Made by a program: the position numbers and the translations under genes. Below the pieces are notes generated by a model. It searched no databases, was not told where the DNA came from, and saw only the letters and a program-made list of their open reading frames with translations. DNA of 64,000 nt from Gammaproteobacteria bacterium (lineage in GTDB: Bacteria; Pseudomonadota; Gammaproteobacteria; UBA12402), in the NCBI GenBank assembly GCA_050123375.1, contig JASFHF010000002.1, positions 28,364-92,363 on the forward strand. Direction: 5' to 3'. Below are positions 20,275 to 63,068 of this stretch, in pieces. Each line of letters begins with the position of its first letter. Position 1 is the stretch's first letter.

Positions 20275-20275
20275 A

Positions 20276-21112: not shown

Positions 21113-21153
21113 CCTATTTTATTTGTATCTCAGTTTTTATATAACATCTCAGG

Positions 21154-21219
21154 GGGACGGGGCTTTACATGATTACAAGGCAACAAACATGGCTTTGTAA
21201 TTATGTAAAGCCCCGTCCC
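21154..21219. repeat. 28-bp REP-like inverted repeat between moeA and moaA
   Basis: GGGACGGGGCTTTACATGATTACAAGGC ... GCTTTGTAATTATGTAAAGCCCCGTCCC. Confidence 0.8.
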
Positions 21220-21235
21220 GACGACTTCATAATTT

Positions 21236-22423: not shown

Positions 22424-22533
22424 GTTTTTGTGCAGATGGTAGCATACAGCGTTGTATCATGGTAGTTTATTCATTAGACAAAATAACGACTATTTTGCAG
22501 CAAAATGCAAAATAGTCTTGACTATTTTGCAAT

Positions 22534-23673
22534 ATGGTGCATAATAGTCGTATGAAACGAGCACAATTAGATATCATATGTAAAGATCTGCAGAAAAAAA
22601 TGGTTTTTATCATTGGTCCACGCCAAGTTGGTAAAACATGGTTAGCGAGGAAAATTGCTGAAAATTTTAATTCTACAGCGTATTTAAATTATGATAGTCG
22701 CCAGGATCGTGAAATCATTCTTAATGAAAATTGGCTGCCAGATACAGATCTGCTTATTTTGGATGAGTTGCATAAAATGCCGGATTGGAAAAATTATATT
22801 AAAGGAGTTTATGATACCAAACCACGAAATTTAAAGATTCTTGTTACTGGAAGTGCGCGTTTAAATGTATATAAAAATTTGGGTGATTCATTAGCAGGTA
22901 GGTTTTTTGCTCACAGACTTTTGCCTTTTTCTCCGGCAGAGTTAACTAAAATAAAACAAGTAATGGATTTAGATCATTTGTTGGCTAGAGGTGGGTTTCC
23001 TGAGCCATTTTTAGCAGAAGAAGATGTTGATGCTGATCGTTGGCGTATGCAGTATATTGATGATTTAATTAGAACAGATGTGCTTGATTTTGAAAACATT
23101 AATAATTTAAAGGCACTTCAATTGACATTAGAGTTATTAAGAGAGCGTGTAGGATCACCAGTTTCTTTTAAATCAATTGCAGAAGATATAGGTGTGTCGC
23201 CCAATACTATTAAGAAGTATATTCAGATTTTTGAGGCTTTGTATATAGTTTTTAAAGTAACACCATATCATAAAAATATTGCGCGCAGTTTATTAAAAGA
23301 ACCCAAAATATATTTTTATGATGTTGGTATGGTAAAAGGTGCAGAGGCGGCAAGATTTGAAAATTTAATTGCTGTGAGTTTGTTGAAATACGTTTATGCC
23401 AAAATAGATATTATGGCAGAGCATTATGCTTTGCATTATTTGCGAACTAAAGATGGCAGAGAGGTGGATTTTGCTTTGGTAAAAGATGGGCAGATAGCGC
23501 AATTAATTGAAGCGAAATTAACAAATAATAGCTTAAGCAAGGATCTGTATTTTTTTGTGAAGAAATATAATTTGCCAGCAGTGCAATTAGTAAAAAATCT
23601 TAAAAATGCTTGTGTGAAAGAAGGTGTTGAGATAAAACATGCGCGCAAATATCTTTGTGATTTAATGATGTAG
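22534..23673 (+). CDS. AAA+ ATPase (AAA_14 plus DUF4143-type C-terminus)
   Basis: GPRQVGKT, LILDELHK, TGSA, GGFPE, KIYFYDVG, REVDF. Confidence 0.88.
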   Translation: MVHNSRMKRAQLDIICKDLQKKMVFIIGPRQVGKTWLARKIAENFNSTAYLNYDSRQDREIILNENWLPDTDLLILDELHKMPDWKNYIKGVYDTKPRNLKILVTGSARLNVYKNLGDSLAGRFFAHRLLPFSPAELTKIKQVMDLDHLLARGGFPEPFLAEEDVDADRWRMQYIDDLIRTDVLDFENINNLKALQLTLELLRERVGSPVSFKSIAEDIGVSPNTIKKYIQIFEALYIVFKVTPYHKNIARSLLKEPKIYFYDVGMVKGAEAARFENLIAVSLLKYVYAKIDIMAEHYALHYLRTKDGREVDFALVKDGQIAQLIEAKLTNNSLSKDLYFFVKKYNLPAVQLVKNLKNACVKEGVEIKHARKYLCDLMM

Positions 23674-23691
23674 CTATGAGTGGATTTGAGC
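23671..23691 (-). repeat. Possible degenerate att (tRNA-Met 3' remnant)
   Basis: TAGCTATGAGTGGATTTGAGC vs TAGCTACGGGTGGGCTCGAAC: 15/21 identical, all mismatches transitions. Confidence 0.4.
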
Positions 23692-23856
23692 GGTCTTGCG
23701 CCCTAAGAACCTCTATCGAGAAAAGACTTTCTCATTTGTTCTATAATGATACGTTTTCCTTTAACTAGGTAATTTCACTTAATAAGTATTTTCACGTATT
23801 CTAAATTAAGTTTTAAATTATAAAATACATACCATGATTGTTAATTTGGTTTCATT

Positions 23857-26268: not shown

Positions 26269-26303
26269 ATTCTCGATCACATGGAATTAGTGGTCGAGAA
26301 AAT

Positions 26304-27560
26304 TTGCAAGAAATCAACAGGAAGATGGAACTTTTATTTAAGAATAATAGCTTTTGCAAGGCAAAATTTAAAATTCATAGCGAAAAAGTTTATATAGACA
26401 AATGGCTTTCAACAAAAACTGAGAAATTGAATATCAATGATATTAAGAAATCATTAAAACAGGCCAGGAAGTTATTAGAGTTGCGGAAATATGAGAATGC
26501 CAGGAAGTTATACATAGAAGTGTTAGATTTTTTTGTTGTTAAGCAACCAGTTCATAGATATCGCAACAAAAATGATTTTGCTGAAGCGTTTATAAATTTT
26601 GCAATGGTGATGCATTGTCTTGGTGAATCCAAGTTTGCTGAAAATGTGCTTTATGTATTTAGAAAATTTTATTCTAAAGAATTTGATAGTTTAATAGTGA
26701 TTAATAAGGCTGAATACCATGGTGTTTTGGCGTATATTAAATATGTTAAATATGAACAAAGCAGGATATTGCAGCAAAGATTTAACTATTTAAAAAAAGC
26801 TTTAGGTGATTTTACTATGGCTTATGAGTTAATTGATGAGGAATTAAAATTGATCAAATCCGATTTGATTGATGAACACATCAAAAAGCTTGCTAAATTT
26901 GCTCATGGGCAAGGCACCGCATACTATTTTCTTGGTGATTGTTGTTTAGAGCAAAAAGATGATAAGGCGGCAGAAAAAAATTATAAGCAATCTGTAAGTA
27001 AATTTTTTTTAGCGTTATTATTAAGAACTTTGATTTATGGAGATAATGATGTTAACGTGGCTAGAAGCCACCATAAATTAGCTACAGCTTTCATAAAATT
27101 AAGTAAACTTAAACTCGCTGGATACCATTTTAAAGAAGCACTTAAAATTCAGCGTAAATTACTTAATAAAGACCATCCCAATAGATGTGAAACAGAGCTT
27201 GCCTATAAAAGATTTATGCAATGTAAAGATAAAAAGGGGAATCAATATAAAGCGACTACTTATGCTGGATTTTACGGTAGTAGAAGAAAAATGTATGATA
27301 ATGGGAATATCAATTGTAGCGAATTTAATAAAATATTGGGTGAGTATCGCAAAAAAGGAATGTTTAAAAAACTTATCGGGTTGTTCAAAAATACTCGTAG
27401 TAATGAGACAAAGAAAACTATTATAAAATGTATAATTGCACCGAATGATAAAGATAGAACAAAGGTCATAAATACTTATATGCTTGAGGACAAGAATAAT
27501 GGCAGAAGATTTAATGAGGTTTTGAAAAAGGAATTACCAGGATTGAGATGGTTGAAATAA
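26304..27560 (+). CDS. Tetratricopeptide repeat protein
   Basis: Kinesin-light-chain-like TPR: VARSHHKLATAF..ALKIQRKLLNKDHP. Confidence 0.75.
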   Translation: MQEINRKMELLFKNNSFCKAKFKIHSEKVYIDKWLSTKTEKLNINDIKKSLKQARKLLELRKYENARKLYIEVLDFFVVKQPVHRYRNKNDFAEAFINFAMVMHCLGESKFAENVLYVFRKFYSKEFDSLIVINKAEYHGVLAYIKYVKYEQSRILQQRFNYLKKALGDFTMAYELIDEELKLIKSDLIDEHIKKLAKFAHGQGTAYYFLGDCCLEQKDDKAAEKNYKQSVSKFFLALLLRTLIYGDNDVNVARSHHKLATAFIKLSKLKLAGYHFKEALKIQRKLLNKDHPNRCETELAYKRFMQCKDKKGNQYKATTYAGFYGSRRKMYDNGNINCSEFNKILGEYRKKGMFKKLIGLFKNTRSNETKKTIIKCIIAPNDKDRTKVINTYMLEDKNNGRRFNEVLKKELPGLRWLK

Positions 27561-28361
27561 TCAATCAAAAATATCCGATGTAATTAATTTGACGTGTTTT
27601 AAAAAATTAATTTTTTTACGAGCATTTTCCAGATGGACTTCAATCGTTCGGTTAGAAATACCTATTAATTTGCCGATTTCTTTGGCTGAAAGACCGTTGA
27701 TTTTGTAATATACACATTCCATTTCTCTGGATGTCAGATAAGATAAGTCGGAATCGAAATAATATTTTGATATTTTAGTTTCTTTGATAAATGTATCTTT
27801 GTTAACCGAATGTTTATTTGTTGGTAATTGTTTATTTGCTGGTATTTTAATAGCGTCCAAAGAAATTTCTCGTAATAAATCAGCAGTTTCTTGTTTGAAA
27901 TAAAAGCAAAATCGTTGCAGCAATCCTGTATCGACATCATAAATTTTTGCATCCGGTGCGGCTATATCATAGCATTCATAAAAATCGTCAAATTCATAAA
28001 TGAACGCATATCCTTCATTAATAGATAAATTACGTAAAAACTTGTATATTTCAAATTCTGGTTTAGTATCCATGTTGTTTTTTTCTATTTGCCAAGCTAC
28101 TAGTTTTTTATTGACTTTTGAATTGTCTCCGTCCAACCAAGCGTACTTATACCAGCCATCACCATAAAATAAATCAAGTACTTCGGGGTTGGTACATAAC
28201 ATAATCCGACGACCATCTTTGTGGATTCTAAGCAATCTGAAATAATTAGCATGAAAATGCTTGAATAAAGGTTTGCAAACGTTGATGACTTTGTTGGTAA
28301 CGCTTTTAAAGCTTGATATATCAAACAACCTACACCTCAATCTCGAACTAATATTTACCAA
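27561..28361 (-). CDS. LuxR-type C-terminal HTH transcriptional regulator
   Basis: LTSREMECV..GLSAKEIGKLIGISNRTIEVHLENARKK; start uncertain. Confidence 0.8.
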   Translation of the reverse strand: MVNISSRLRCRLFDISSFKSVTNKVINVCKPLFKHFHANYFRLLRIHKDGRRIMLCTNPEVLDLFYGDGWYKYAWLDGDNSKVNKKLVAWQIEKNNMDTKPEFEIYKFLRNLSINEGYAFIYEFDDFYECYDIAAPDAKIYDVDTGLLQRFCFYFKQETADLLREISLDAIKIPANKQLPTNKHSVNKDTFIKETKISKYYFDSDLSYLTSREMECVYYKINGLSAKEIGKLIGISNRTIEVHLENARKKINFLKHVKLITSDIFD

Positions 28362-28492
28362 AAGTTCCAGAATTAACCAAATATTCTATACGTAAAATAT
28401 TTGGGTGTCTATAAGTAATTTTACTTATATGCATACGTAAGAGGAGATTAGCTAGAAATAAATCAACTATTTATCGGGAAATTAAAATTTTC

Positions 28493-30043: not shown

Positions 30044-30453
30044 AACACACCCATTTGTTATTATTATAATTGATGGTATTCTATCTTATGCAGCAAAAAA
30101 GTAATTTTGTTGACCATTTGTGATCAATAATTTAGCTTTATAAATTTTGCATTTTCTTCAATACGGATATTTTGCAAATAAAATGTAAAAAATGGGTGTC
30201 ATTTACCATAGGAAATTGTAGTAAGTTCTATCTAATTTTGTAGCTAATCTACAGTCATGCATATTTATATGAAAGTTTGGAAAGCTTGCGGTTCTGCAAA
30301 TTATTGGGGCAGAAAGTTAGGGGGATTTGGACATGTTTTATAATTACTCTAGCCCTTCCGTTTTATTACTTTTACTTTAATTTACTATTATTTACTAAAT
30401 GATTTGCCACCCCATTGCCACCCCAAAAATTTATCCGGAATCGGCAGATCTCT

Positions 30454-30521
30454 ATAACCCCTTGATTTTATTAATAGCTACGGGTGGGCTCGAACCACCG
30501 ACCTCGGCATTATGAGTGCCG
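30454..30521 (-). repeat. att site (68-bp direct repeat of 62974-63041, includes tRNA-Met 3' part)
   Basis: Identical 68 bp read directly at both loci. Confidence 0.97.
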
Positions 30522-30642: not shown

Positions 30643-30666
30643 TTTTGCCACATTATTGCCACATTG
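30643..30666. promoter_or_regulatory. Probable integrase arm-type sites (TTGCCACATT x2); also 62922-62945 and variant 30403-30424
   Basis: Tandem direct decamers near both att sites. Confidence 0.6.
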
Positions 30667-30696: not shown

Positions 30697-31923
30697 ATGA
30701 AAGCGATATTAACTAATACTTTTGTTTCAAAGCTGGAACCTAGTAAGCGGATGTATGATGTTTGGGATGAAAAATTAACAGGTTTTTTAGTTCGTGTATT
30801 TGCTAGTGGTGCTAAATCTTATCTTTGTTACTATAGGCATGAGGGCATTAAAAAAAATGTTACTATTGGTAGTGTGGAGCTATTTACAGTTTCTCAGGCG
30901 CGTGAAAAAGCTAGAATTATTTTAGGAAATGTTGCAAGTGGTATATTTTCAGATGCGGAAAAGAAAACGAAACAGGTTATAACACTAAAGAACTTTATTG
31001 AGCAAGAATATGAACCGTGGAGATTGTCTAATAGAAAAGATGGAAAAGCAGAAATTGATAAAATAAAAACAAAATTTTTTGAACAGTTTGGATGTGTGCC
31101 ATTAAATAAAATTGCTTTATTGACGGTGGAAAAATGGCGTTCTAAGAGGTTAAAAAATGGAATTTCAACCTCGACAGTTAATAGAGATATTTCAGCATTA
31201 AAAGTAGTGTTTTCAAAGGCCTTAGAATGGGGGTTTATAGAACATAACCCTATAGTAAAATTAAAGACTTTAAGAGCAGATGATTCTGGGATCGTGCGAT
31301 ACTTGGAGGTAGAGGAAGAAATACGGTTAAGGCAGGCACTGGATGAACGAGAGGCGGGTTTAAGGGCAGCAAGAGAGAGAAGTAATGAGTGGCGCAAGGA
31401 TCGTGGTTATTCTAAATGGCCAGGGTTTCAAGGAGATTATTTGAAGCCGATGGTGCTTCTATCACTTAATACGGGTATACGAAAGGGAGAGTTATTAAAC
31501 CTAATTTGGGAACACATCAATTTTAAAACCAAAATATTAATGTTACCTGGTAGTGCTACAAAAAGCGCTAAAAAAAGATATATACCACTGAATGGTGAGG
31601 CTTGTGAAATTTTAAAATATTGGCAGATGGTGTCAGGTAGGAAGAGAGGGTTGGTTTTTTTTAATCAAGAGGGGAAAAAATTTACTGACATCAAAAAGTC
31701 TTGGATATCATTAAGACAAGCTGCGAAAATTAAAAATTTTCGATGGCACGATATGCGACACCATTTTGCAAGTAAACTTGTGATGGCGGGGGTTGACTTA
31801 AATACTGTTAGAGAGCTTCTTGGGCACGCAGATATAAAAATGACCTTAAGGTATGCTCATTTAGCTCCCGAACACAAAGCTAGAGCAGTTGCTAAGTTGA
31901 AAAATCCGTTAATTGATTATTAA
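30697..31923 (+). CDS. int: Tyrosine recombinase/integrase with arm-binding domain
   Basis: TGIRKGEL, TKS, HDMRH, LLGH, RYAH. Confidence 0.95.
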   Translation: MKAILTNTFVSKLEPSKRMYDVWDEKLTGFLVRVFASGAKSYLCYYRHEGIKKNVTIGSVELFTVSQAREKARIILGNVASGIFSDAEKKTKQVITLKNFIEQEYEPWRLSNRKDGKAEIDKIKTKFFEQFGCVPLNKIALLTVEKWRSKRLKNGISTSTVNRDISALKVVFSKALEWGFIEHNPIVKLKTLRADDSGIVRYLEVEEEIRLRQALDEREAGLRAARERSNEWRKDRGYSKWPGFQGDYLKPMVLLSLNTGIRKGELLNLIWEHINFKTKILMLPGSATKSAKKRYIPLNGEACEILKYWQMVSGRKRGLVFFNQEGKKFTDIKKSWISLRQAAKIKNFRWHDMRHHFASKLVMAGVDLNTVRELLGHADIKMTLRYAHLAPEHKARAVAKLKNPLIDY

Positions 31924-31950: not shown

Positions 31951-32211
31951 CTAAAAACGAGGTTTAAATCGTTCTTTTGAACGATCTTCTTCATAATCGC
32001 AGCGATTATTTCGTAACCACTGTTTTAAATCTTCAGGCAAGTATCTGACGGATTTATGTCCTAATTTGATAAATTTTGGACCTTGAGGTTTTCCTTCTAT
32101 ATGGCCATGTCTTCTATGGTATCGCAGAAATGATACGCTCATATTTATAAAATCAGCGGCTTCATATTCATTGAGGCATTCTGGGGTTATGTTTGTTATT
32201 TTTGGTCTCAT
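31951..32211 (-). CDS. AlpA/excisionase-like HTH protein
   Basis: LNEYEAADFINMSVSFLR..GPKFIKLGHKSVRY..DLKQWL. Confidence 0.82.
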   Translation of the reverse strand: MRPKITNITPECLNEYEAADFINMSVSFLRYHRRHGHIEGKPQGPKFIKLGHKSVRYLPEDLKQWLRNNRCDYEEDRSKERFKPRF

Positions 32212-32972: not shown

Positions 32973-33671
32973 TTAGTTGGTTTTCAAAATAAGGCGTTTA
33001 TAAGAATTAACAACAATTTTGGCTTGTTTTAACTGTTCTTTTGGTCTAGATTCGTGTTCTATAATGCTTGAATAAATTTGTGATGCTAACTCTGCTTGTT
33101 TGTCATAATCAACGTGCAGGTGAGCATCAATGTAAATCTGAGCAATTTCTTTCAGTATGGTCTGCATTAGCGCAACATTGATTGAAAATACAACAGATTC
33201 TTCTTTTTTTTCAGTGGGAGCAAGAAACGTAATTTCATATAGTTTCTTTCTTAAACTTTCAGAAATAATCTCTTTGCCTTGATCTTTTGCGTGTTTTTGT
33301 CTTAAAAGCATAAAGGCGATATAGGTCTTTTTATCAGTTAGTTCTTCTTCGGCCATTTTGATGCCCTCAAGCGGATCGCCTTCACCTGTTTTTAGCCAAT
33401 GATAGTTTACTTTGCAGATCTGGCTTATTTTTTTTAGAGCGTTCTCGCTAGGATTTCTGATTCCGACTTCCCATTGGTAATAAAGCGCTCTGTTTACATC
33501 GGGGAAGAATTTATTTTTAAAATCTATTATTTTTAGGAATCCTGCGCTTTCACGGGCAGCTTTAATTCTTACACCCAGGGCATAAGCGTCATCTTGCTTT
33601 TTGGCACGCTTAAGGTTCTTGTATACAGGGTGTTTTTTTGAGAGCTTATTAGGTTTTATTTGTTTGCTCAT
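32973..33671 (-). CDS. XRE-family HTH repressor-like regulator
   Basis: LGVRIKAARESAG..YYQWEVGIRNPSENALKKIS..VNYHWLKTGEG; AAGGAG RBS before ATG 33671. Confidence 0.8.
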   Translation of the reverse strand: MSKQIKPNKLSKKHPVYKNLKRAKKQDDAYALGVRIKAARESAGFLKIIDFKNKFFPDVNRALYYQWEVGIRNPSENALKKISQICKVNYHWLKTGEGDPLEGIKMAEEELTDKKTYIAFMLLRQKHAKDQGKEIISESLRKKLYEITFLAPTEKKEESVVFSINVALMQTILKEIAQIYIDAHLHVDYDKQAELASQIYSSIIEHESRPKEQLKQAKIVVNSYKRLILKTN

Positions 33672-34504
33672 CTTGTCATCTCCTTTTAGTACTTTATTAA
33701 ACATTTTACGTTAATTGGATGTAAACTTCAAATGGTTGTAAATAAAAATGCAACCGCCTTTTTCTTAGCTTTGCAATATTGTACCCAGGACATATTGCAT
33801 ACAAAATTACAATTAATAGCAAAACTAATGTAGGTTAATCACAATAAAATCAAACAGTTATTTATTTTTGCACACAAAAAATGCTTGCAAAGTTGTACGC
33901 TTCGTACTAGGCATAAAATATGCACAGATAAGCAAATGTGTAAGAGTTAGAATTTTTGTGAACAAAAGTGCAAATAATGATAAGGCGCAGAAAACATGAA
34001 GATATGAGGAAAAATAGCAATGGTGCGTCAAGAAGCACATAAAATTCAATCGGTGGGAATCCGATGTTCATAAAGCTTAGCTGGTAATGTAAAACTAAAC
34101 TTTACACTGAAGGAGGTGACAAATTCAGTGAAGCTGAAGGGATAGATATATTGGGATATTGGGTTGTAAAGAAGTAAATGCGCCATGATGAGCATATACA
34201 AAACTGATTAAATTTTAGTCTGATAACTCCTTAGAACCACTGTATTTTCATTGACATATTCTTATCTGATATGTTACTTTGCAAAATAATAAAAAAAATT
34301 GCGGCAAATTATATATTTGATAAGCAATAATTTCTGCCGAGACATTAGCCTGCTGGTTACGGAGGTTTTTTGTGAATTATTCTCACAATCTTTTGGCTAT
34401 TTTTTCCATATCTTCTCACGGTTTTAATGGTTTTTTATTTCCCAAAAAGTTGTGTTTTTAGTTAGGCTTGATGCTGAATTATTGTTAATTGCGGAGAAAG
34501 TTAA

Positions 34505-37500
34505 ATGATAGTAGTTATTTCAACATTTACAGATACTCTTCTGAAAAAGCCTTTAAAGCTTTTCCTAAGTAAGTTTAGTTCTAAGACCCCTGAAATAGTT
34601 TTTGCTCCATATAATCAAGTGTTTCAACAACTTAGTAATGAAACTAGTCTTTGTTCTAAAAACACCTCTGATCCTAATGTTATCTTAATTAGATTTGAAG
34701 ATTGGATTGATGAAGACGATAAAGAACAGCTATCTAATTTGCAAGAGGACGTGCAGTTTTTTTGGGAGCTTCTACAAAAAGCATCAACCAAAACTACCCA
34801 TCCATGGATAGTGTGTGTTTGCCCAGATAGTCCTCGTAGTCTAAAAGTTCCAGGCAGAAAAGAAGTATATAATAAGCTACTTACCCAATTTCATAATCAT
34901 TGTGATAAAACTAGTAATGTTTATTTTATAGATCCTAAAACTATCCAATCATTTTATCCTGTTAAAGATTATTATGATGCCAAAAGCGATGAAATTGGCA
35001 AAATTCCTTATGTTGACAAGTTTTTTTACGGATTAGCAGCAATAATTGTGAGACGTATAAATGTTATTGGATTACCTCCGTATAAAGCTATCATTGTAGA
35101 TTGTGATAATACTTTGTGGAAAGGTGTTTGTGGTGAGGTTGGATATTCTGGCATCAAAATTAGCGAACCATATAAACAATTTCAAAAATTTCTGGTACAA
35201 CAAAAAAAAGACGGGATGTTAATATGCTTATGCAGTAAAAACTCATATAAAGATGTTCATGATGTTTTTGTAAAACGCCGTAATGACATGCCTCTTAAAT
35301 GGGAGCATATTACCACATACAAAATCAATTGGGAAAAAAAGACTAGTAATATTTCTGAAATAGCAACACAATTAAATATAGGTTTGGACAGTTTTATTTT
35401 TATTGATGATAATCCTGTAGAATGCGGAATGGTGCGCGAGACGCTTCAGGACGTATTAACTTTACAAGTACCAGTTAATATAAATAATTTCCCGCTATTT
35501 CTTAAACATGTATGGCCATTTGACCATCTCAAAGTTACGCAAGAAGATAAAAAACGTACAGAAATGTACAAGCAAAATTTACAACGAAAGAACGAAGAAA
35601 AATCTATTAACGCAAAATCCAGTAGCACAAGTTCTTCTTCTGTTAGTAAATTTCTTAAAAGATTGAAATTGGTAGTGACAACGAAATTAATCAACATCAA
35701 TTCTAAACATATAGCCCGCGTCGCCCAATTAACCCAGAGAACTAATCAATTTAATTTTACAACACAAAGATTTTCGGAAAAGAAAATACAAAATGCAATT
35801 AGTAACGGTCAGTATTGTATGGCTGTTTGGGTGAAAGATCGGTTTGGAAATCATGGATTAGTCGGGGTAGTAATTTTTAGCACTACAAAAAAATCGCTTC
35901 AAGTAAATACTTTTTTGTTAAGTTGTAGAGTATTAGCAAAAAATGTTGAACATCATATTATAGTTGAATTAGCTAAATTTGCTCTTAAGCAAAACATCTT
36001 ACAAATAGAAATAGCTTACAAACGCACTGAAAAAAATATTCCGGCTTTTAATTTTCTACATAGAATGAAAGTGGCTACTAAATTATCACCGGATAATGAC
36101 AATTGCACTTTTATCATAAAAACTGAAGATGCCAAAAATATCAATTTATTACGTCAGCAGAATAATCTTTTGTCGCGCGAGAAAGTTAAAAAATTATCAA
36201 GCAAACGCACACGTCCGTATAATTTGCAGTACATAGAAATTGCTACAAAACTTGCGACTGTAGAGCAAATATCTAATGCTATGAGACCTAAAATTTTAAC
36301 TAAAAAAACGCCTATACAATTTAAAACGGAATTTGAACGACAAATTGTTAATATTATAGAGGATATTCTTTGTATAAAAGGGATAGCGCCTAATGATAAT
36401 TTTATTGATATTGGATTTAGCTCATTATACATGGTTTTGGCAATATCAAAAATAAAAAACAAATATGAAGTAACTGTAAAATTAGAAGAACTGTTTAAAA
36501 TATCTAATGCAAAGCAACTGGTAAATTTGGTATCACAAAGATTCGTAAAAACCAGGAAAAATTTACCAAAAAAACAAAAGCTGATGCGTATACAAGAAAG
36601 ATATAAAGCATTACCGTTATCTGATGCGCAACAAAGATTGTGGGTATCATTTCAGACGGAACAAAACAAATCATTATATAATATGATTGTTTCATATAAG
36701 CTGGTTGGTACTCTTAATTTAGAGGCTTTAAAAAAAGCATTCCAAACATTGATTATGCGCCATGAAAGTTTAAGAACAAAATTTATTTCCAAAGAGAACA
36801 ATCCAAATCAAATTGTGTTACCTTACTCTGCTAAGCTTTTTTATTTAACCCAGCGGCCATTGGACTCAACGCTTTCAAAAAAAGTGGATATTATATCGCA
36901 AAAACCATTCGATTTATCAGATGCTCCTTTAATGCGGGTTACTTTATTTAGTAATCAAAAGGATGAGCATTTATTGTCTATTGTATGGCACCATATTATT
37001 AATGATGGTTGGTCGTTTAATCTTTTGATGAAGGAGTTGTCCACACTTTATAACTATTATGTTGAGCAAAAACGAGAATTTGGAATATTGACGACTTTTA
37101 TGTTAATTAATAAGCACATACAAAATTCTTTACTAAATAACAATAAAAATATTGACGAACATTTGTGGAGTTTAAATAAGGTTTATGCAGAAACCTTCAA
37201 ATTAGTTTTGTCTTATCTAGTAAGCTCTAATAATCAACAAAGATATATAAGCAATTGGAAAAACCAATTAACCCTGTCTTCTCAAAAGATTAATAATACT
37301 ATTCCTGGATTGTCCGTGCAAAAAATAGATTATATTGATTTTTCTGTTTGGCATAGGCAATATGTTAGGCAGAAAAAAATATTTGATGATTCTCTACGTT
37401 TTTGGAATGCCAAGCTTACAGATTGTGAAGCTATTAATTTCCCAACAGATTATCCTGTATCTAAAATTAGTTCAAAATCTTATAAAGCGCTACGTAAACC

Positions 37501-40500
37501 ATTTACAATAGAAAAAAATGTTCTTTCTCAGTTAAAAGAGCTAGCAAAAGCAAAAAACACCACTTTATATAATGTATTGTTAACATTATTTTTTATACTA
37601 CTTGCGCGTTATAGTAATCAAAAAAAACTTATTATCCATGTTCCTAATGCAGGTAGAAATCATCAAGATACTCAAAACATGGTTGGTTTTTTTGTGAATT
37701 TGATACCAGTTGTTGTTGATTTACAAGAAAATTCCACATTTTATACAATTATTGAAAAGTTAATAAAATTTTCCAGTGAATCACTGAAGCATCAGGAGTT
37801 GCCATTTAATGAATTGGTAAAGTCACTCCATTTTGCAAAATATGCAAAAAATAACCCGCTGCTAAGAATAGCTTTTGTTTATCAAAACTTTCCGGTACAC
37901 AAACTTAATCTTAATGGCTTAAATGTTAGCAGGATTTTCACAGATAATAATGACATGTTGGTTGATAATCCATTATATTCAAAAAATAGTTTTTTTACCT
38001 TGTATATGCAAGAAAACTCTAAAATTGGCACATGTCAGGCATTGCTTGAATATAATACCGCGTTATTTGAAGAAAGCACTATAAATAGAGTTATTACTCA
38101 CTTTAAAATGTTAATGCAAAGTATTATCGACAATCCCAAGTGTAATATTTTTAAGTTACCTATGCTAACTGAAGAGGAAATCCGAAATGAGCTGGAAGTT
38201 TGGAACAATACTAAAACCGAATTTTCTAAAAATCAAACTATCACGCAGTTGTTTGAGCAGCAAGTGCAAAAAACACCGAAAAAAATAGCAGTTTCATTCT
38301 ATAATGTAAAGATGAGCTATGAGATGCTCAACGTGCGATCAAATCAATTATCACATTATTTGAGACAAGAATGTGGTGTGATTACTGGATCTTTCGTTGC
38401 AATATGTATGAATTCTAACCCTCAAAGAGTTATCAGCATTATGGGTGCAATCAAAACTGGTGCAGCATATATACCTCTTGATCCTCTTTATCCAAAATCG
38501 CGAATTGAATTCATATTAAATGATTCCGGCGCTAAAGTATGTCTTGTAAATAAAGTTACTTTAAAACTTGTAGCTCAGATAAAAACCAATTGCAAATTTA
38601 TAGCTATAGAAGATATAGTTTTTAAAAAATATAAAACGGTTAACCCTTTATTGAAGGCTAAACCACAGGATTTAGCGTATTTATTATATACGTCAGGCAC
38701 TACTGGAAAACCAAAAGGAGTTTTGATTGAGCATAGAAGTATAGTAAATACCATTTTCTCCCAATTTAAAAAATTTGATATTAACCAAGATAGCAGAATT
38801 TTACAGTTTGCTTCGTTTACATTTGATGCTTCAGTATCCGAGATTTTTACTGCGTTATTAAGCGGAGCTACATTATGTTTAATACGCGAGAAAGATAGAT
38901 TAAATCGTCTTATTGAATTTATGAACGATGCGAAAATTACGGTAGCAACGCTTCCTCCTATGCTGCTTAAAACGATAGATGTTTCCAAAGTTAAATCTCT
39001 TAAAACTTTGGTTACAGCAGGAGAACCTATAGATAATGAAACTACCAGTAAATACAAAAGTATTCCTGTTTTTTGCAATGCCTATGGACCTACTGAGTGT
39101 ACAATTCATGTGACTAACAATCGTTTTAAAAAAGGGAAAAAATTTGGGATTGGGCAACCTATTGATAATACGAAGTGCTATGTTTTAAATAAATATATGC
39201 AACTTGTACCGGTTGGTGTTATTGATAAATTATATGTGGGTGGCAAAGGTGTTGGTAGAGGCTATCATAATAGACCAGAACTTACTAAGGAAAAATTTAT
39301 AAATGTGAATATACACGGCAAAAAACTCAGATTATTTGATACTGGAGACTTAGTATATCGATTATCCGATGGTAATCTTGTGTTTGTCAGACGCATAGCA
39401 GATGATTACATTAAAATTAATGCATTTCGTATTCATCCTGGTGAAGTAACAAGCGCTCTTTATAAGACAAAAGTAGCTCGGCAAATTGTTGTGGATAAAG
39501 TAGGAAAACAATTAGTTGCATATGTGGTTCCTGAATATGGTTACTTATGTAGTTCGCTCCATAAATATTACGAGAAACATGTAAGAATGTGGCGTAATTT
39601 TTACGATAATGTTACACATAAAGATTTATCAGTTAGTAATGTGAATGATACATCTGGTTGGATTAATAGTTATACTGAAAAACCATTTTCAAAAAACGAA
39701 ATGAGTGAGTGGGTTGAGACAACGGTTAACAGGATTCAGAAATTACCAACCTCGCACGGTAAAATTCTTGAGATAGGATGTGGTACGGGACTCTTACTTT
39801 TTCCTTTAGTTAAACAATGTAAACAATATATAGCAACCGATTTTTCTGAAAAAGTAATTGATCCGTTAAAAAAGAAATTGAAAAAACATGGTATAAAAAA
39901 TACAGTACTAAAACAAAAAAGTGCGCATCAATTTGAAAAAGAAAATGAATCATACGATCTTATAGTTATAAATTCTGTTGCGCAATATTTCCCAGATATA
40001 CGATACCTTATAAAAGTATTAGAAGATGCTGTTAACAACATATCTTCAAGTGGCGGATCGATATTTATTGGAGATGTTAGAAGTCTTGCTCACTTACGAC
40101 TATTTTATGCTAGCCTCTTTTTGAGTAAAAATCCAAATATTTCTGTAAAAGAATGTAAGCAGTTTATTATTAATAAATTTCATTCCGAGAAAGAACTAGT
40201 CATATCGCACGAGTTTTTTAAAGATTTTGCAGCTTCTCACCCTAAAATTAGCGTTATCGAACTGCAATTAAGAAGAGGAAATTATAACACAGAGATGAAT
40301 TGTTTTAGATATGACGTTATACTACACGTTAATAATCTATCTAAGAAATTATTATTTTCTAGAGATGTTGAATGGGTAGATTATAAAATCAAGCAAGTTG
40401 ATATTGTTGAAATAAGTAACCAATTAAAGTCTAAGCCTAAGTATTTAGCTTTAAAAAACATCCCGAATGCCAGATTAATAAACACGGTAAATTGTCTTCA

Positions 40501-41998
40501 AACTTTATTTGGCAGTAAAAATAAATCAACACTAAAAAGCGTAAATCCTGAAACGTTATGGAAATTGGAAGAATTATTTCCAGAATATAAAGTAAACATT
40601 ACCTGGTCGAAACAATATCCGTATAACTGTATGGATGTTGTTATTTATAAACGAAATTCATATCTTTATGCAAATTTTATCCCAGGGATTCACATGTTAA
40701 GCCCATCAAAAATGAATAACTATGCAACTCATCCCTTAAAGGTTAGTATGAAACAACAGCTAATTTCTGAAATGAGATTAGTCTTAAAAGAAACCCTACC
40801 ATTTTACATGCATCCTTCTAAATTTATTTTCCTTGATAATATACCACTAACAATTAATGGGAAAACCGATAAAAAAGTGTTGCAATTATATAACACAGTG
40901 AATCCATTACATATCAAGTTTGAAAAACCCAGCAGTGAAACACAAAAAATAATAACCAATATATTTACACGTCTGTTAGGGATAGACTCCATTGGGGTCA
41001 ATGAAAACTTCGATAATTATGGAGCAGATTCATTGACCATCATGCGTCTAGTTGCTACAATTAATGAGAAGTTCAATCTTAACATTGGATATACAGATAT
41101 ACTTTTGCATTTAACTGTAAAAAAACTTAGTGTTTTAATTGAACACTTGCTGCTGGCAAAGGCGAAAGTTTTAGATGTTCCTAAATATTTTGTGACGATT
41201 CAAGATAAAGGTAGGAATACGCCTCTTTTTCTTGTTCATGATATATATGGTACTGTCTTTCAATATCAATTTTCGCCAAAAGTACTCAAAAATCGGCCAA
41301 TTTATGCTATACAGCATCCTGGTATAGGAAATAAAGAGCTACAGTTTAAGACTATGCAAAACATGGCAGAAGCATATATGAATTTAATTATTTCACAATC
41401 GCCTAAAGAACCCTATTTTATAGGAGGATATTCTTTTGGCGGATTGGTAGCTTTAGAAATTGCTAAAATGCTAGAATATAGAGGAGCACAACATATATGT
41501 CTATTTCTATTCGATACTTGGATTATTCCTAAAGATAAACATGATGTTTTTATTAATATTGAGCTTAATGTTAAACAATTTTTAGAAAAACATAACAATG
41601 ATGTTGAAAATTTAGGTATAGATAAAATTGCTAATAGGCAACTTCAAATGGCAAAAATATTTCTGGCGCCTAAACTAAAGAAAACACATATTGTTTTATT
41701 TAAAGCTGAACAGCCTACTAAGTATTCATCAAAAATAGAATGTACTGATAATAATTTGCAGCAGTGTACTAAGCAGAAAATTACGGTTTGTAAAGTACCA
41801 GGAACCCATGAACTGATTTTAGATAAAAAAAATATTTCTAAATTTACTTTATTGCTGAATTCTGAGATAGAAAAACAGGAACAATGGAAAGTCTATAAGA
41901 AACCAACCACAGCAATGTTTACTGATATTAAACCCCGTGATAATTTAATCATGAACAAATCTAATCATGAAAAGCTAAAAAATAGTATTGAAATGTAA
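34505..41998 (+). CDS. Single-module NRPS: FkbH-T-C-A(nMT)-T-TE
   Basis: FkbH DCDNTLW/IDDNPVE/TNQFN; T GFSSL; C HHIINDG; A YTSGTTGKPKG, NAYGPTE, TGDL, NGK; MT LEIGCGTG; T GADSL; TE GYSFGG. Confidence 0.93.
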   Translation: MIVVISTFTDTLLKKPLKLFLSKFSSKTPEIVFAPYNQVFQQLSNETSLCSKNTSDPNVILIRFEDWIDEDDKEQLSNLQEDVQFFWELLQKASTKTTHPWIVCVCPDSPRSLKVPGRKEVYNKLLTQFHNHCDKTSNVYFIDPKTIQSFYPVKDYYDAKSDEIGKIPYVDKFFYGLAAIIVRRINVIGLPPYKAIIVDCDNTLWKGVCGEVGYSGIKISEPYKQFQKFLVQQKKDGMLICLCSKNSYKDVHDVFVKRRNDMPLKWEHITTYKINWEKKTSNISEIATQLNIGLDSFIFIDDNPVECGMVRETLQDVLTLQVPVNINNFPLFLKHVWPFDHLKVTQEDKKRTEMYKQNLQRKNEEKSINAKSSSTSSSSVSKFLKRLKLVVTTKLININSKHIARVAQLTQRTNQFNFTTQRFSEKKIQNAISNGQYCMAVWVKDRFGNHGLVGVVIFSTTKKSLQVNTFLLSCRVLAKNVEHHIIVELAKFALKQNILQIEIAYKRTEKNIPAFNFLHRMKVATKLSPDNDNCTFIIKTEDAKNINLLRQQNNLLSREKVKKLSSKRTRPYNLQYIEIATKLATVEQISNAMRPKILTKKTPIQFKTEFERQIVNIIEDILCIKGIAPNDNFIDIGFSSLYMVLAISKIKNKYEVTVKLEELFKISNAKQLVNLVSQRFVKTRKNLPKKQKLMRIQERYKALPLSDAQQRLWVSFQTEQNKSLYNMIVSYKLVGTLNLEALKKAFQTLIMRHESLRTKFISKENNPNQIVLPYSAKLFYLTQRPLDSTLSKKVDIISQKPFDLSDAPLMRVTLFSNQKDEHLLSIVWHHIINDGWSFNLLMKELSTLYNYYVEQKREFGILTTFMLINKHIQNSLLNNNKNIDEHLWSLNKVYAETFKLVLSYLVSSNNQQRYISNWKNQLTLSSQKINNTIPGLSVQKIDYIDFSVWHRQYVRQKKIFDDSLRFWNAKLTDCEAINFPTDYPVSKISSKSYKALRKPFTIEKNVLSQLKELAKAKNTTLYNVLLTLFFILLARYSNQKKLIIHVPNAGRNHQDTQNMVGFFVNLIPVVVDLQENSTFYTIIEKLIKFSSESLKHQELPFNELVKSLHFAKYAKNNPLLRIAFVYQNFPVHKLNLNGLNVSRIFTDNNDMLVDNPLYSKNSFFTLYMQENSKIGTCQALLEYNTALFEESTINRVITHFKMLMQSIIDNPKCNIFKLPMLTEEEIRNELEVWNNTKTEFSKNQTITQLFEQQVQKTPKKIAVSFYNVKMSYEMLNVRSNQLSHYLRQECGVITGSFVAICMNSNPQRVISIMGAIKTGAAYIPLDPLYPKSRIEFILNDSGAKVCLVNKVTLKLVAQIKTNCKFIAIEDIVFKKYKTVNPLLKAKPQDLAYLLYTSGTTGKPKGVLIEHRSIVNTIFSQFKKFDINQDSRILQFASFTFDASVSEIFTALLSGATLCLIREKDRLNRLIEFMNDAKITVATLPPMLLKTIDVSKVKSLKTLVTAGEPIDNETTSKYKSIPVFCNAYGPTECTIHVTNNRFKKGKKFGIGQPIDNTKCYVLNKYMQLVPVGVIDKLYVGGKGVGRGYHNRPELTKEKFINVNIHGKKLRLFDTGDLVYRLSDGNLVFVRRIADDYIKINAFRIHPGEVTSALYKTKVARQIVVDKVGKQLVAYVVPEYGYLCSSLHKYYEKHVRMWRNFYDNVTHKDLSVSNVNDTSGWINSYTEKPFSKNEMSEWVETTVNRIQKLPTSHGKILEIGCGTGLLLFPLVKQCKQYIATDFSEKVIDPLKKKLKKHGIKNTVLKQKSAHQFEKENESYDLIVINSVAQYFPDIRYLIKVLEDAVNNISSSGGSIFIGDVRSLAHLRLFYASLFLSKNPNISVKECKQFIINKFHSEKELVISHEFFKDFAASHPKISVIELQLRRGNYNTEMNCFRYDVILHVNNLSKKLLFSRDVEWVDYKIKQVDIVEISNQLKSKPKYLALKNIPNARLINTVNCLQTLFGSKNKSTLKSVNPETLWKLEELFPEYKVNITWSKQYPYNCMDVVIYKRNSYLYANFIPGIHMLSPSKMNNYATHPLKVSMKQQLISEMRLVLKETLPFYMHPSKFIFLDNIPLTINGKTDKKVLQLYNTVNPLHIKFEKPSSETQKIITNIFTRLLGIDSIGVNENFDNYGADSLTIMRLVATINEKFNLNIGYTDILLHLTVKKLSVLIEHLLLAKAKVLDVPKYFVTIQDKGRNTPLFLVHDIYGTVFQYQFSPKVLKNRPIYAIQHPGIGNKELQFKTMQNMAEAYMNLIISQSPKEPYFIGGYSFGGLVALEIAKMLEYRGAQHICLFLFDTWIIPKDKHDVFINIELNVKQFLEKHNNDVENLGIDKIANRQLQMAKIFLAPKLKKTHIVLFKAEQPTKYSSKIECTDNNLQQCTKQKITVCKVPGTHELILDKKNISKFTLLLNSEIEKQEQWKVYKKPTTAMFTDIKPRDNLIMNKSNHEKLKNSIEM

Positions 41999-42018: not shown

Positions 42019-44570
42019 TGAATATGGATATAATAAAACAGCAGAATTTTGAAATTTTTGAAAGTATGTTATTTCCTTTTTGTTGTAAAGACATTAAGGG
42101 AAAATATATCATCTGTAATGATGCTTATGCTAAATTACTTAATTTTAAGTCTAAAAATGACTTAATTGGAAAATTAGAAAACACTTTGCTTAGCAAGAAG
42201 ACAGCGGCTTTACTCAGCAAATATGATGACGAAATAATTGCAAAAAATAGTAAAAAAATATTTGCTTTAGAAATAGATGCTTTACCTAAAGCCGAAAGAT
42301 TACTAGTGCTGAAATACCCATGTAATGAGTTTAAAAAAATTAAGGGGGTGTTTTCTATTCTAATTAGTCTTGATAATGAAGACATAATAGAGAATATTCG
42401 TAATGCTTGTTTGGATTTACAAGATGTAACCCAAATTAATGGATCTTCTTTTTTGAAAAATATTATAGCAAACTTGCCGGGAAGTATATATTGGAAAGAT
42501 CGCAATGGAGTATATTTAGGATGCAATAATTATGTTGCTTAAATGGCTGGAGTTGCATCGCCAGATGAGGTAATTGGAAAAACAGATGAAGACTTTCATT
42601 GGAAAAATTTAGCTGATGAAGTGCGAAAAGATGAGCAAGAAGTTATGAATACCGGCATACCTAAAAAATTAGAAATAGCCGGCCCTTCTGTAGGTGGAAA
42701 GCCTGCTGTATTTTTAGCAACCAAATATCCACTATATGGTAAAAACGGTAAAGTAATAGGTATTCTTTGTACATCCTTGGATATTACAGAACGTAAAAGA
42801 GCAGAGCAGCAGTTAAAAGAAACCAAAAACAAATTAGAAGAATTAAATGCTCTAAAGGATCAATTTATAGAAAATATGGAACACGATTTAAGAACTCCAA
42901 GCTCTGGTATTATGGGTATGACCAAAATTCTTGAAGAGCGAGAAACTGATTCAGAAAAAAAGAAAATCTTACATCTGCTTTCACAAGCATCTGAAAGACT
43001 GTTAAATGTTTTAAATGGAATTGTAGCATTTGATAAAGCAGAAGCTGGCGTTTTGTCAATAGTAAATAAAAAATTCTCAATTAAAAAAATTGTTAGTGAC
43101 ATTTTTGCCATGGAAATGCCGACAGTTGTAACTAAAAAATTAAAATTAACAGTGAAATATGATGACAATATTTCAGACATGATCATTAGCGATGAACAAC
43201 GGATTTTTAGAATTTTATTAAATTTGATTGGTAATGCAATTAAATTTACACATCGAGGCCATGTAACTGTCTATGTAAAAATGCCTAATATCATTGATAA
43301 ACAAAATGCTATTTTACAACTTATTGTAGAGGATACTGGTATAGGAATACCTGCTGATAAAATAAACAGTATTTATAAACGTTTTGTGCGTGGTACACCA
43401 GCTAATCAGGGAATTTATGAAGGTTTAGGTTTAGGGTTGTCTATGGTAAAGCATTTTATTGAAGATATTGAAGGCGAAATAGATGTGGAAAGCACTTTAG
43501 GCAAAGGTACTAAATTTACTTGCACTATACCGATTAAACTACCTTTGTTAAGTAACAACTCTATAGAAGCTAAGCTGGCAAAAACGGAAAAAACAGAAAA
43601 AACCAAGAAGGCAAAAAAAGTAAAGAAAGTAAAACCGAAACAAAGAATGAAAACAACAAAAGCAATAAAAAAATCAAAGATTGTAAAAACTACGGCGGAA
43701 AAAAAGAGTATAAAATCACCAAAATCCATAAAAGCAGTAAAATCCAACAAATCAGGAACCAGAGTATTATTAGTTGAAGATGATATTCTAGCTCAAACAA
43801 TGGCATCAAATATGATAAAAGAAAAGTTGACTAATAATTTAGATATTGCAGATTCTGGGGAAGAAGCTATAAAACTTACTGATAAAAATAAATATGATTT
43901 AATTTTCATGGATATTGGTTTGCCAAATACTAAAGGATACGATGTTACTCGTAAAATCAGAAAGTCCAAAACAGGTAAAAATCAAAAAACAGTAATTGTT
44001 GCTTTAACTGCTCATGTTTCACAGAAAGAAAAGAAAAAATGTTTTGATGCACAAATGAATTGTTTTTTAACTAAACCATTAACTATAAACAAAATAAAGG
44101 AAGTTTTAAAGGAATTGTTATCTGGGGGATTTACAGAAACAAAGATTAAAGAAACGCAGAAACCAAAAAAATCAAAAGAAGCATCGAAAACTAAAACATC
44201 TAAAAAAATGTCAGTAAGCAGTGATTTATTAAAAATCGAAGGAAAGGTTATCGACCTTAAGCTTGGCATGGAAAAACTTAGCTGTGACGCTGAACAAGCT
44301 AAAAAGACAATTGAATTGTTTATTAAACTGCTTAAAGAAGAAATGCCACAGCTTGTTAAAGCCAAAGATAAAGGTGATTGGAAAACCGTAAAAGACCTTG
44401 CGCACAAACACCGTGGCGGAAGTTTATATTGCGGGGTTCCGAGATTACAGCAAGCTTTCACAAACCTAGAACATTATCTGATTACCGATAAAACGGAGCT
44501 ACGCGAGCAATTATATCAACAATTACTTGATGAAATTGATAAGCTTTACGCAGCACAAGAAAAAGCATAA
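42019..44570 (+). pseudogene. PAS-PAS hybrid histidine kinase (HisKA-HATPase-REC-Hpt) split by in-frame TAA at 42540-42542
   Basis: The two ORFs are in frame and adjacent; MEHDLRTP, NLIGNAIKF, DTGIGI, GLGLS, FMDIGLP, TKP, AHKHRG. Confidence 0.85.
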
Positions 44571-44803
44571 GTTAATTTATGGTAATCTGTAATAGTTGGA
44601 CACAACATCGTGTGCCAATAATGACGGTATGTTTGCATCGATAATTTATTCCCATTGCTTGTAATTTGTGGCTTAAATTTCTTTCCCTGTATATTTACAA
44701 GATACAATGGATGGTAAAGGAATTGTTTTGGGCGGACAAAGATGGCCGGATGTTTTGTCTATAAAACTAAAGATGTGAATAATAACGCACAAATAATATT
44801 ACA

Positions 44804-45057
44804 GTGGTTTCCCCACGTCACTATGGATAATTGGTGTCCATAGTGACGTGGGGAAACCACGTTCCGAAACCCTTGTGTAGAAAGGGTTTCGGCCGATTTA
44901 AAGCGAGAAAGTTGGGTGTACAGCGGGAATAAAAGTTTACAGTTTAAAAATACAGGTTAAAGTCAGGTTTTAGGCGGATGAAAAATGGGTATGGAAAGGC
45001 GAGTAGTAAAAATCACATTAGGTGTCTAAAATATCCATTTTTCATCCGCCTAAAACC
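44804..45057. repeat. Cluster of perfect inverted repeats (24, 11 and 23 bp arms)
   Basis: 44804-44860, 44864-44892, 44966-45057 read directly. Confidence 0.9.
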
Positions 45058-45782
45058 ATGATTTTGTATATAAAAATGCAGAATTTTTCTTGACAAATTC
45101 GCATGTTTGTCTATACTTACAGTACAAGTCGATGCCCAGTGGACTATAACTTCTGGGTGAACGCGAAAGATCCTATGAGAAACGCGTGAAGGTTTAAGTA
45201 TTAAGCCTTTAGGATAATACAAAGTTAGGTTTGTATATCATGATGCTAAGTGGTTTCTATAACCACATTTCCGATGAAAGACAATAAAATCTTTATGATT
45301 TTATTGTTCCCTTCTGATGTTAGTATATTTGGGAAATCATTTTTCTAAATATGCCGCTATTGTTGTCGCAATTTAATAACAGCCAAATTATTATAAAATG
45401 AAAGTTTAAATCTGCTGCAAAGCAACAATTTAAAATTTTCAATTTAATAATTTTATTAGTTTGTATTGCGATAATGTTTGTAGTTTGTGACTAAATTAAG
45501 TAAACAACTTAAAATTAGTGTTTTGTATCAGTGTCAAAAAATCAATATGAATAATAGGTTAATTTGAAATTGTGAGTTTTGACAATTATTCAGTCTTAAC
45601 AAAATTACATATATGCAATTTTTGAAGATACAGTTTATAACAAAAGTGCAAGTTAATTTTTAATCGGTTACAAGTAATAACAGAGTCAATTTTATCAATA
45701 TTTTCAATATTAAATTTTTGTTAGGTAAAAATGCAATATCATTTTTAATCTAGTTTATTAACTATAATATAGGAGTAATGTT

Positions 45783-62727: not shown

Positions 62728-62994
62728 GGTGATATTCCATTATATAAGTTAATATTGTATTAATTATGGACGATTAATTAATATTTGCCAGGAATTATTT
62801 ATAGAATATTTTATAGGATATATATTATACAAAAAACGTGGTTTTTTTGCTTGAAACAAGAACAGATCAGTTGCGCCCGATTTTTGAGATCCTATGCTTA
62901 CTTATCATTATTTGCTAATCAATTTGCCACATTATTGCCACATTCAGATTTATCAAGATCAAGGATCGGTGTCATAACCCCTTGATTTTATTAA

Positions 62995-63068
62995 TAGCTA
63001 CGGGTGGGCTCGAACCACCGACCTCGGCATTATGAGTGCCGCGCTCTAACCAGCTGAGCTACGTAGCC
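62995..63068 (-). tRNA. tRNA-Met(CAT), elongator type, CCA not encoded
   Basis: GGCTACGTAGCTCAGCTGGTTAGAGCGCGGCACTCATAATGCCGAGGTCGGTGGTTCGAGCCCACCCGTAGCTA forms a full cloverleaf. Confidence 0.95.

Follow-up and report, generated by a model that had tools for sequence, protein, structure and literature searches.

A single-module synthetase with an FkbH unit

The window, the whole stretch of DNA that we analysed, is 64,000 nt long and comes from a gammaproteobacterial assembly (GCA_050123375.1, contig JASFHF010000002.1, positions 28,364 to 92,363). At 34505-41998 on its forward strand lies the gene for a nonribosomal peptide synthetase (NRPS) that begins with an FkbH unit, and immediately after it lies a gene for a PAS histidine kinase. 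The source genome measures 1.97 Mb and its GTDB order comprises 14 species. The NRPS gene is one open reading frame (ORF) for 2497 residues. Pfam and NCBIfam profiles place in it, from N- to C-terminus, FkbH, carrier (T1), condensation (C), adenylation (A) interrupted by N-methyltransferase (N-MT), a second carrier (T2), and thioesterase (TE) domains. The original prediction, made from the sequence letters, had given FkbH-T-C-A(N-MT)-T-TE in a single ORF, with which both the ORF limits and the profiles agree exactly. A GGAG Shine-Dalgarno sequence stands 10-13 nt 5' of the ATG, and at a G+C content of about 31%, an open frame as long as 7.5 kb is far beyond chance.

The FkbH unit (34505-36067, by profile and alignment) consists of an N-terminal domain, residues 1-190, and a HAD-IIIC/glyceryl-transferase core, residues 193-521, which matches TIGR01686 with 272 bits against a curated cut-off of 146.65. 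The HAD phosphatase motifs (DxDxT, S/T-K-N, and DD) and the conserved Cys are present and conserved in alignment with 11 relatives, as DCDNTLW (35099-35119), CLCSKN, IDDNP (35402-35416), and LLSCRV (35915-35932). From OzmB-type enzymes, we take the Cys of LLSCRV to be the residue that carries glycerate. The unit shares the DxDxT, SKN, and DDNP motifs and the Cys with the discrete glyceryl-acyl carrier protein synthases OzmB, FkbH, and Tmn16; enzymes of the OzmB/FkbH type are reportedly HAD-IIIC phosphatases and glyceryl transferases, as Dorrestein is said to have described in 2006. The discrete synthases supply polyketide extender or tetronate pathways, whereas the one in the window is predicted to feed an amide-forming C domain in cis.

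Carrier domain T1 (36317-36544, PP-binding profile) has its Ser in GFSSL (36413-36427). The C domain (36602-38179) matches its profile (294 bits), in two stretches, and keeps HHIINDG (36989-37009). Within it lies an insert of 76 residues, Asn/Lys/Leu-rich and of low complexity (residues 858-933, 37076-37303), which is lineage-specific and occurs in no aligned relative. The AlphaFold2 prediction for the C domain reaches a mean pLDDT of 78 and a pTM of 0.75, with values of 85-97 for the canonical lobes and 42-63 for the insert. The core is thus predicted to fold, with the insert modelled as a low-confidence helical excursion past the helix that follows HHxxxDG.

The interrupted A domain (38252-40909; AMP-binding 254 bits, TIGR01733 367 bits) keeps SGTTGKPKG, NAYGPTE, and NGKTDKK; motifs A3, A5, A7, and A10 are present, and A8, as read from the sequence, is degenerate. 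The methyltransferase (39605-40744, residues 1701-2080; profile match 1735-1865) has its S-adenosylmethionine motif ILEIGCGTG at 39764-39790 and sits between A8 and A9, ahead of AMP-binding_C (residues 2085-2120). TioS (5WMM) is its best match in the PDB, with an E-value of 2e-39 over 285 residues, and by sequence it is of the backbone N-MT type. The A4aM4A4b domain of TioS likewise has the methyltransferase between A8 and A9; the window enzyme differs from it in its aromatic code and in having the domain within a termination module. T2 (40937-41149, residues 2150-2209) carries GADSL at 41021-41035, and the TE (41222-41995, residue 2240 onwards) carries GYSFGG at 41426-41443 and GTH at 41798-41812. 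Among solved structures, AB3403 and EntF are the best relatives of the T-TE part.

The core motifs of a C-A-T-TE termination module are therefore all there: HHxxxDG, A3, A5, A7, A10, the carrier Ser, and the GxSxG and His of the TE. Elsewhere the genome encodes one phosphopantetheinyl transferase (PPTase) of Sfp size, as well as phosphoglycerate kinase (PGK), which bears on the supply of 1,3-bisphosphoglycerate. An MbtH partner was not found in the genome, which taken alone is uninformative. With its catalytic motifs intact, the NRPS is active-looking.

A soluble PAS histidine kinase encoded next to the synthetase

The kinase gene starts 25 nt past the NRPS stop codon with an AAGGA Shine-Dalgarno sequence. 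Profiles give the order PAS-PAS-HisKA-HATPase-REC-Hpt. No terminator-like site was seen between the two genes, which are probably co-transcribed. The NRPS had originally been called stand-alone; this is right for biosynthetic genes but not with regard to the kinase. The setting, that is, an integrative island, a coupled kinase, and at least nine related loci, had not been covered. None of the partner kinases, here or in the related loci described below, has a membrane-spanning hydrophobic segment.

In the window the kinase frame is interrupted. A 5' fragment (42024-42542, forward strand) encodes PAS1 and the first strands of PAS2 and ends at an in-frame TAA (42540-42542). The remainder (42543-44570, forward strand) continues in the same frame from an ATG that abuts the TAA, and encodes the rest of PAS2, HisKA, HATPase, REC, and Hpt. 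The TAA lies inside conserved PAS2, in place of a Lys that the three closest relatives all share (YVA-K-MAGVAS). The only other assembly with the TAA, Logan contig L001, shows 100% identity across 9.2 kb and hence provides no independent confirmation.

Past the kinase there is a gene-poor stretch of 1.8 kb with two long, near-perfect hairpins (44800-44863 and 44959-45065), which match miRNA-hairpin models merely through their shape. A strong promoter-like site (45090-45117, 11/12 matches) follows them.

Predicted substrate and product

Read both from motifs and from alignment, the Stachelhaus code of the A domain is DASTVAAIHK, identical to the pocket originally aligned by hand. The nearest codes among the 472 A domains compared are DASTVAAIC (one difference), DASTVAAVC (two differences), which we take to be the classical Tyr code (Stachelhaus 1999), and DAWTVAAIC, of the Phe type. 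Eight of the ten specificity residues match the Tyr code DASTVAAVCK, the two differences being V330I and C331H, and the N-MT-containing relatives in the clade described below carry the Phe codes DAWTVAAVCK or DAWTVAAICK. The earlier description, close to Tyr-type codes with an unusual His, holds up: the nearest codes are Tyr and Phe types, and His at position 331 in such a context is without precedent among the 472. The best reading of the code is an aromatic, Tyr-like amino acid.

By analogy with the OzmB/FkbH family, the FkbH unit would take D-1,3-bisphosphoglycerate, dephosphorylate it, and pass glycerate via its own Cys (LLSCRV) to T1. The interrupted A domain would activate the Tyr-like amino acid, load it onto T2, and N-methylate it. 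The C domain would then make the glyceroyl amide, and the Ser-type TE would release a small glyceroyl-N-methyl-amino acid. If the amino acid is Tyr, the expected neutral masses would be 283.106 for the linear and 265.095 for the lactonised form. The original prediction had reasoned along the same lines (FkbH-loaded glycerate, N-methylated aromatic amino acid, and TE release), and the domains, the code, and the N-MT match support it. Release may occur by hydrolysis, by lactonisation through the 2-OH to the morpholine-2,5-dione originally suggested as a possibility, by lactonisation through the 3-OH, or by oligomerisation. An N-methyl amide favours ring closure, and bassiatin and lateritin are morpholine-2,5-diones.

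Oligomerisation raises the alternative that the enzyme is iterative. Using the glycerate hydroxyl, the TE would link several glyceroyl-N-methyl-amino acid units into a cyclic depsipeptide, a bacterial and glycerate-based counterpart of beauvericin or enniatin, or into a trilactone in the style of enterobactin, with ionophore or antibiotic activity, and the kinase would merely regulate it. Beauvericin does indeed repeat a unit made of a hydroxy acid and an N-methyl aromatic amino acid, but the likeness to beauvericin/enniatin and to bassiatin/lateritin is one of building blocks only. Beauvericin and enniatin synthetases are fungal, adenylate the hydroxy acid, and release through a terminal C domain with twin T domains; the window enzyme has FkbH loading, a single T2, and a terminal TE, without the twin carrier or terminal C domain of enniatin synthetases. 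EntF, whose TE is iterative, is with AB3403 the nearest solved relative of the T-TE part, though that TE similarity is weak (E 1e-14) and not predictive of release mode. Iteration is frequent among single-module NRPSs that have a TE, and it has been discussed for the monomodular NRPSs of Legionella (PMC5126622). Against this, neither resistance nor export genes are conserved beside the pair, and the constant companion of the synthetase is a sensor kinase, at loci whose other genes are all housekeeping genes. We regard an iterative depsipeptide synthetase as unlikely.

A clade of synthetase-kinase pairs

An FkbH-T-C-A-T-TE protein, with or without the methyltransferase, and an adjoining PAS kinase occur at eight loci besides the window: L002 (GCA_964271535.1), L003, L042, L045, L046 (from the same family as the window genome), L047, L049 (a metagenome-assembled genome labelled Rickettsiella sp.), and L108. 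The clade thus has at least nine members, a number that is a lower bound. All nine synthetase genes adjoin a kinase gene. In eight the kinase gene is 3' on the same strand and either overlaps the synthetase gene or starts no more than about 30 nt past it; the L047 kinase gene is convergent to that of the synthetase. A tree of the FkbH-T-C part, built from 41 proteins, unites the nine kinase-linked synthetases in a single group (SH-aLRT 98), and the kinase link requires one change on it versus a mean of 8.2 after shuffling; this tree and that of PAS2 below were built on AT-rich, compositionally biased sequences and carry composition warnings. The clade is separate from OciA and the other multi-module lines, from L040, a single-module FkbH type without a kinase, and from the single-module proteins P0132 and P0172. 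Among the matches listed, none of about 160 other FkbH loci has a PAS kinase neighbour. This clade of single-module FkbH synthetases belongs to small-genome Gammaproteobacteria of a host-associated type.

In L045 and L046 the two genes stand alone among housekeeping genes (dnaE in one, hda and asparaginase in the other), which makes the pair a self-contained module. The pair loci were found to share no gene for tailoring, export, or regulation. Integrases related to the one in the window adjoin the pair in L042 and L002. No close homologue was found, the best matches being 36-41% identical over parts, and a metagenome scan with the family alignment returned, among the matches listed, generic FkbH loci only. 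That no characterised product is known for this architecture still stands, as no characterised close homologue appeared in the databases or literature searched. The architecture is not unique, though, since at least nine relatives and a second class share FkbH-T-C-A-T-TE.

The second class, found in L048 (P0132) and in P0172, has a Cys as TE nucleophile (GYCMGG) and a Gly-like code, DILQ-GMVWK. A glycosyltransferase gene lies 3', genes for a PPTase, FabA, and an SDR protein lie 5' in L048, and there is no kinase. A Cys-type TE recalls the TEs that form beta-lactones and beta-lactams.

Two of the pair loci have further neighbours. In L002, a 264-aa orphan and two polyketide synthase (PKS) genes, one of them KS-AT-DH... 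with a GerE/LuxR-type Pfam match, lie 3' of the pair (19698-25375), and three small GerE proteins and a REC protein are encoded 5' of it. In L042, the region 5' of the pair (2-2871) encodes a kinase C-terminus with REC, a single REC, an Hpt-REC-GGDEF protein, and an XRE regulator, which hints at a c-di-GMP output in that genome.

PAS kinases beside other NRPS genes

The 20 PAS kinases most similar to that of the window had been taken as free controls, and six of them abut NRPS genes without FkbH. The neighbour is A(N-MT)-T at two loci of one genome (L229 and L230, in G195), C-A-T-C-A-T-TE in L231 (G168), a 2813-aa NRPS ending in a TE in L232 (G039), and C-A-T plus a T-TE protein in L233 (G235). 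The sixth, L234, is in the window's own genome (contig C16), where a C-A-T gene for 1077 aa (6740-9970, reverse strand) is divergent from a kinase gene (10095-12701, forward strand). This kinase is intact, with 869 aa in the order PAS-PAS-PAS-HisKA-HATPase-REC, and an 822-aa ORF lies downstream of the synthetase gene. Because NRPS genes are few in genomes of 1.5-3 Mb, the association of NRPS and PAS kinase genes is far above chance. The pairing is not restricted to FkbH enzymes, and pairing with FkbH-less NRPSs also accounts for the partner kinases of the FkbH clade not being monophyletic.

Correspondence between synthetase class and PAS2

The codes of the clade fall into aromatic, aliphatic, and Pro-like types. 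Phe-type codes are found in L002, L003, and L049, all with an N-MT, alongside the Tyr-like code of the window, also with an N-MT. L047 (DAFWIGGTFK), L045 (DALWIGGIFK), L042 (DAFFLGCTFK), and L108 (DAFFVGGTF) have Val/Ile-like codes, and L046 has a Pro-like one. In a tree of PAS2 only, the window, L002, L003, and L049 form one clade (98/87) and L108, L045, L047, and L042 another (99/96), each made up of synthetase-linked kinases only. The two PAS2 clades coincide with the aromatic, N-methylating set and with the aliphatic set, and neither group conflicts with the synthetase tree, whose likelihood even rises under each constraint (approximately unbiased (AU) test, p 0.74 and 0.77). A single clade of whole partner kinases was rejected (AU p 7e-9); the kinase cores group otherwise, with the core of L002, for example, joining other kinases at 100/99. 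Sequence comparisons thus point to a synthetase and a PAS end of the kinase that were inherited together and a transmitter part that was exchanged, which would fit a matched signal-sensor pair. The co-divergence of NRPS and PAS2 can be explained equally by plain linkage.

PAS2 as a specific marker of the pairing was considered and rejected. The type occurs in 147 of 400 genomes and in at least 11 copies in this one, so similarity alone says nothing of the ligand.

These results bear on a second alternative, in which the kinase senses an unrelated cue, such as redox state, a metabolite, or the host, and merely controls a secondary-metabolite gene whose product acts on the host or on competitors, with no autoinduction loop. 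In its favour, cluster-situated regulators are common, the PAS2 type is widespread and multi-copy, and kinases without an NRPS neighbour are scattered among the kinase cores. It accounts less well for a pairing that persists over at least nine loci and several NRPS architectures, for two genes that move as a unit between housekeeping genes, and for PAS2 subgroups that match the amino-acid class of the synthetase. Purely regulatory coupling of this kind strikes us as unlikely.

The pair lies on an integrative island

The NRPS gene is within a 32.5-kb island at tRNA-Met, bounded by perfect 68-bp direct repeats (68/68). The left repeat, attL, is at 30454-30521 and is identical to attR at 62974-63041. 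The right end of the island (62974-63069, reverse strand) comprises attR and tRNA-Met (62994-63069), the attR copy including the 3' 48 nt of the tRNA gene. A tyrosine integrase gene (30697-31923, forward strand; Arm-DNA-bind_3 and Phage_integrase profiles) lies just inside attL and is followed by a gene for a small AlpA/excisionase-like HTH_17 protein (31951-32211, reverse strand; profile). The integrase is 49% identical to the one encoded directly 3' of the NRPS-kinase pair in L042. A sister species within the genus (G008) matches the window with 89-96% identity in the moeA flank, in the two ORFs at 28.5-30.1 kb, and in the flank at tRNA-Met, and at the tRNA-Met site it has 2.3 kb of unrelated sequence instead of window positions 30119-62992. 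No FkbH match was found in that genome. An integrase near one end, repeats that copy the 3' end of the tRNA gene, and absence from a close relative together mark the element as a tRNA island. A smaller island within 29.9-47.4 kb was rejected, as there are no direct repeats there and the actual repeats span 30.45-63.04 kb.

We propose that the module reached this genome on the tRNA-Met island and that the kinase gene gained its nonsense codon afterwards. This leads to a third alternative, namely that here the island carries the module along in a state of decay, its kinase broken and its synthetase silent or non-functional despite the open frame. The TAA in conserved PAS2, where the closest relatives have Lys, the low-complexity insert in the C domain, and the recent acquisition of the island, with its perfect repeats, would all be in keeping with it. 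Yet the synthetase has 2497 codons without a stop in 31% G+C DNA and keeps every catalytic motif, the core of its C domain is modelled with high confidence, and the ATG abutting the TAA could allow re-initiation of the truncated kinase. Decay of the whole module appears improbable to us.

Several other features surround the pair. A 243-aa protein with a weak HTH_3 match (32973-33704, reverse strand; profile) is encoded divergently from the NRPS and is possibly a local regulator, without a counterpart in the related loci. In the 800-nt region 5' of the NRPS, positions 34056-34175 (forward strand) match group II intron D1-D4 with 27.6 bits, below the gathering threshold of 49 (E 1.4e-4), and may be an intron remnant; GTGCG lies near it at about 34014. 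An Rfam scan of the region gave no match above threshold. A second exact repeat, of 22 bp (TTTGCCACATTATTGCCACATT), is found near both ends of the island, at 30644-30665 and 62923-62944, and copies of TTGCCAC occur additionally at 30402-30421. The 22-bp repeats and TTGCCAC copies are possibly arm-type sites of the integrase. Separate from the island, 22500-28488 is also missing from G008 (L228) and encodes an AAA_14/DUF4143 ATPase, an 803-aa orphan, a TPR protein, and a LuxR-type protein.

A likely intracellular signal

Taken together, we interpret the locus as a synthase-kinase module, with a probability of roughly 0.6. The single-module NRPS, predicted to make a glyceroyl-N-methyl Tyr-like product, would be its synthase half, the soluble PAS-PAS-HisKA-HATPase-REC-Hpt kinase would be the other half, and the product would likely be an intracellular signal. 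It would be sensed inside the cell by the PAS kinase, or would at least be a metabolite whose making is wired to the kinase. From the genes that accompany the synthetase, the product seems more likely to be a signal than an antibiotic. Given a conserved and soluble PAS kinase, a signal sensed within the cell is the most economical function.

A number of observations weigh against this interpretation. On the side of the enzyme, these are the degenerate A8 motif, the 76-aa insert in the C domain, and His331 in the code. The stop codon in PAS2 means that the circuit may be dead in this genome. Whole partner kinases do not form one clade, PAS2 is of a widespread, multi-copy type, plain linkage would account for its co-divergence with the NRPS, and no response regulator or exporter is conserved across the loci.

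A broader proposal, which we put forward tentatively, is that the pair belongs to an undescribed system in which small NRPS products are read intracellularly by the PAS domains of soluble (hybrid) histidine kinases encoded beside the synthetase. The bacteria concerned would be small-genome, probably host-associated Gammaproteobacteria (Coxiellaceae/Rickettsiella-like and neighbours). The FkbH clade would make N-glyceroyl amino acids or their lactones, PAS2 subtypes would match signal classes (aromatic and N-methylated, or aliphatic), and the modules would spread on integrative islands, with the window carrying a variant that is a producer without a receptor.

Relation to known systems

Loading of glycerate into peptides by FkbH and small NRPS-made signals are both already known. 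Pairs of synthase and sensor kinase serve in the quorum sensing of Gammaproteobacteria, as in RpfF/RpfC, CqsA/CqsS, and LqsA/LqsS. In Dickeya, the Vfm system uses a non-ribosomal-type signal with the VfmI/VfmH two-component system, and synthase and sensor vary together (PMC9306890). As in these four systems, the synthase gene in the window adjoins that of a (hybrid) histidine kinase. Their sensors are membrane proteins, whereas the kinase here has no membrane segment. A genuine modular NRPS with FkbH takes the place of the synthase, and the signalling role is predicted.

NRPS lines with FkbH units are on record for cyanopeptolin (OciA of Planktothrix), aeruginosins and suomilide, vioprolide, and cystomanamide (PMC8949500, PMC10143770). 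As in those lines, FkbH and a carrier take the place of an A domain and are followed by a C domain that would pass glycerate to the amino acid; OciA was itself recovered as a homologue (P0223), with 35% identity across FkbH-T. Those lines use FkbH at the start or extension of a multi-module assembly, often with a sulfotransferase or FAAL, whereas here there is one module that ends in a TE. Legionella monomodular NRPSs beside regulators, in bacteria with one Sfp-type PPTase, have been proposed as makers of signals (Tobias et al. 2016, PMC5126622). The window enzyme resembles these and AB3403 of Acinetobacter baumannii (4ZXH) as a small stand-alone NRPS of related bacteria with regulator neighbours and a single Sfp-type PPTase, but neither FkbH nor pairing with a PAS kinase is described there. 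Literature searches on FkbH with Legionella, quorum sensing, and NRPS, and on Rickettsiella NRPSs, gave nothing on a single-module FkbH NRPS, its product, or its pairing with a PAS kinase. The enzyme type is a new combination, and the synthetase-PAS kinase module, so far undescribed, is plausible as a signalling unit.

The finding would add a compact, one-protein route to glyceroyl-amino acids and a recurrent genetic tie between such a route and cytoplasmic PAS kinases, in a group of bacteria about whose signalling, between cells or dependent on the host, little is known apart from Lqs. With two genes and varied codes, the pairs offer a tractable system for the release product of an FkbH-C-A-T-TE enzyme, for PAS kinases as receptors, and for the co-diversification of synthase and sensor. 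Even if the link is regulatory only, the module would still provide a clean new small-molecule scaffold from uncultured bacteria.

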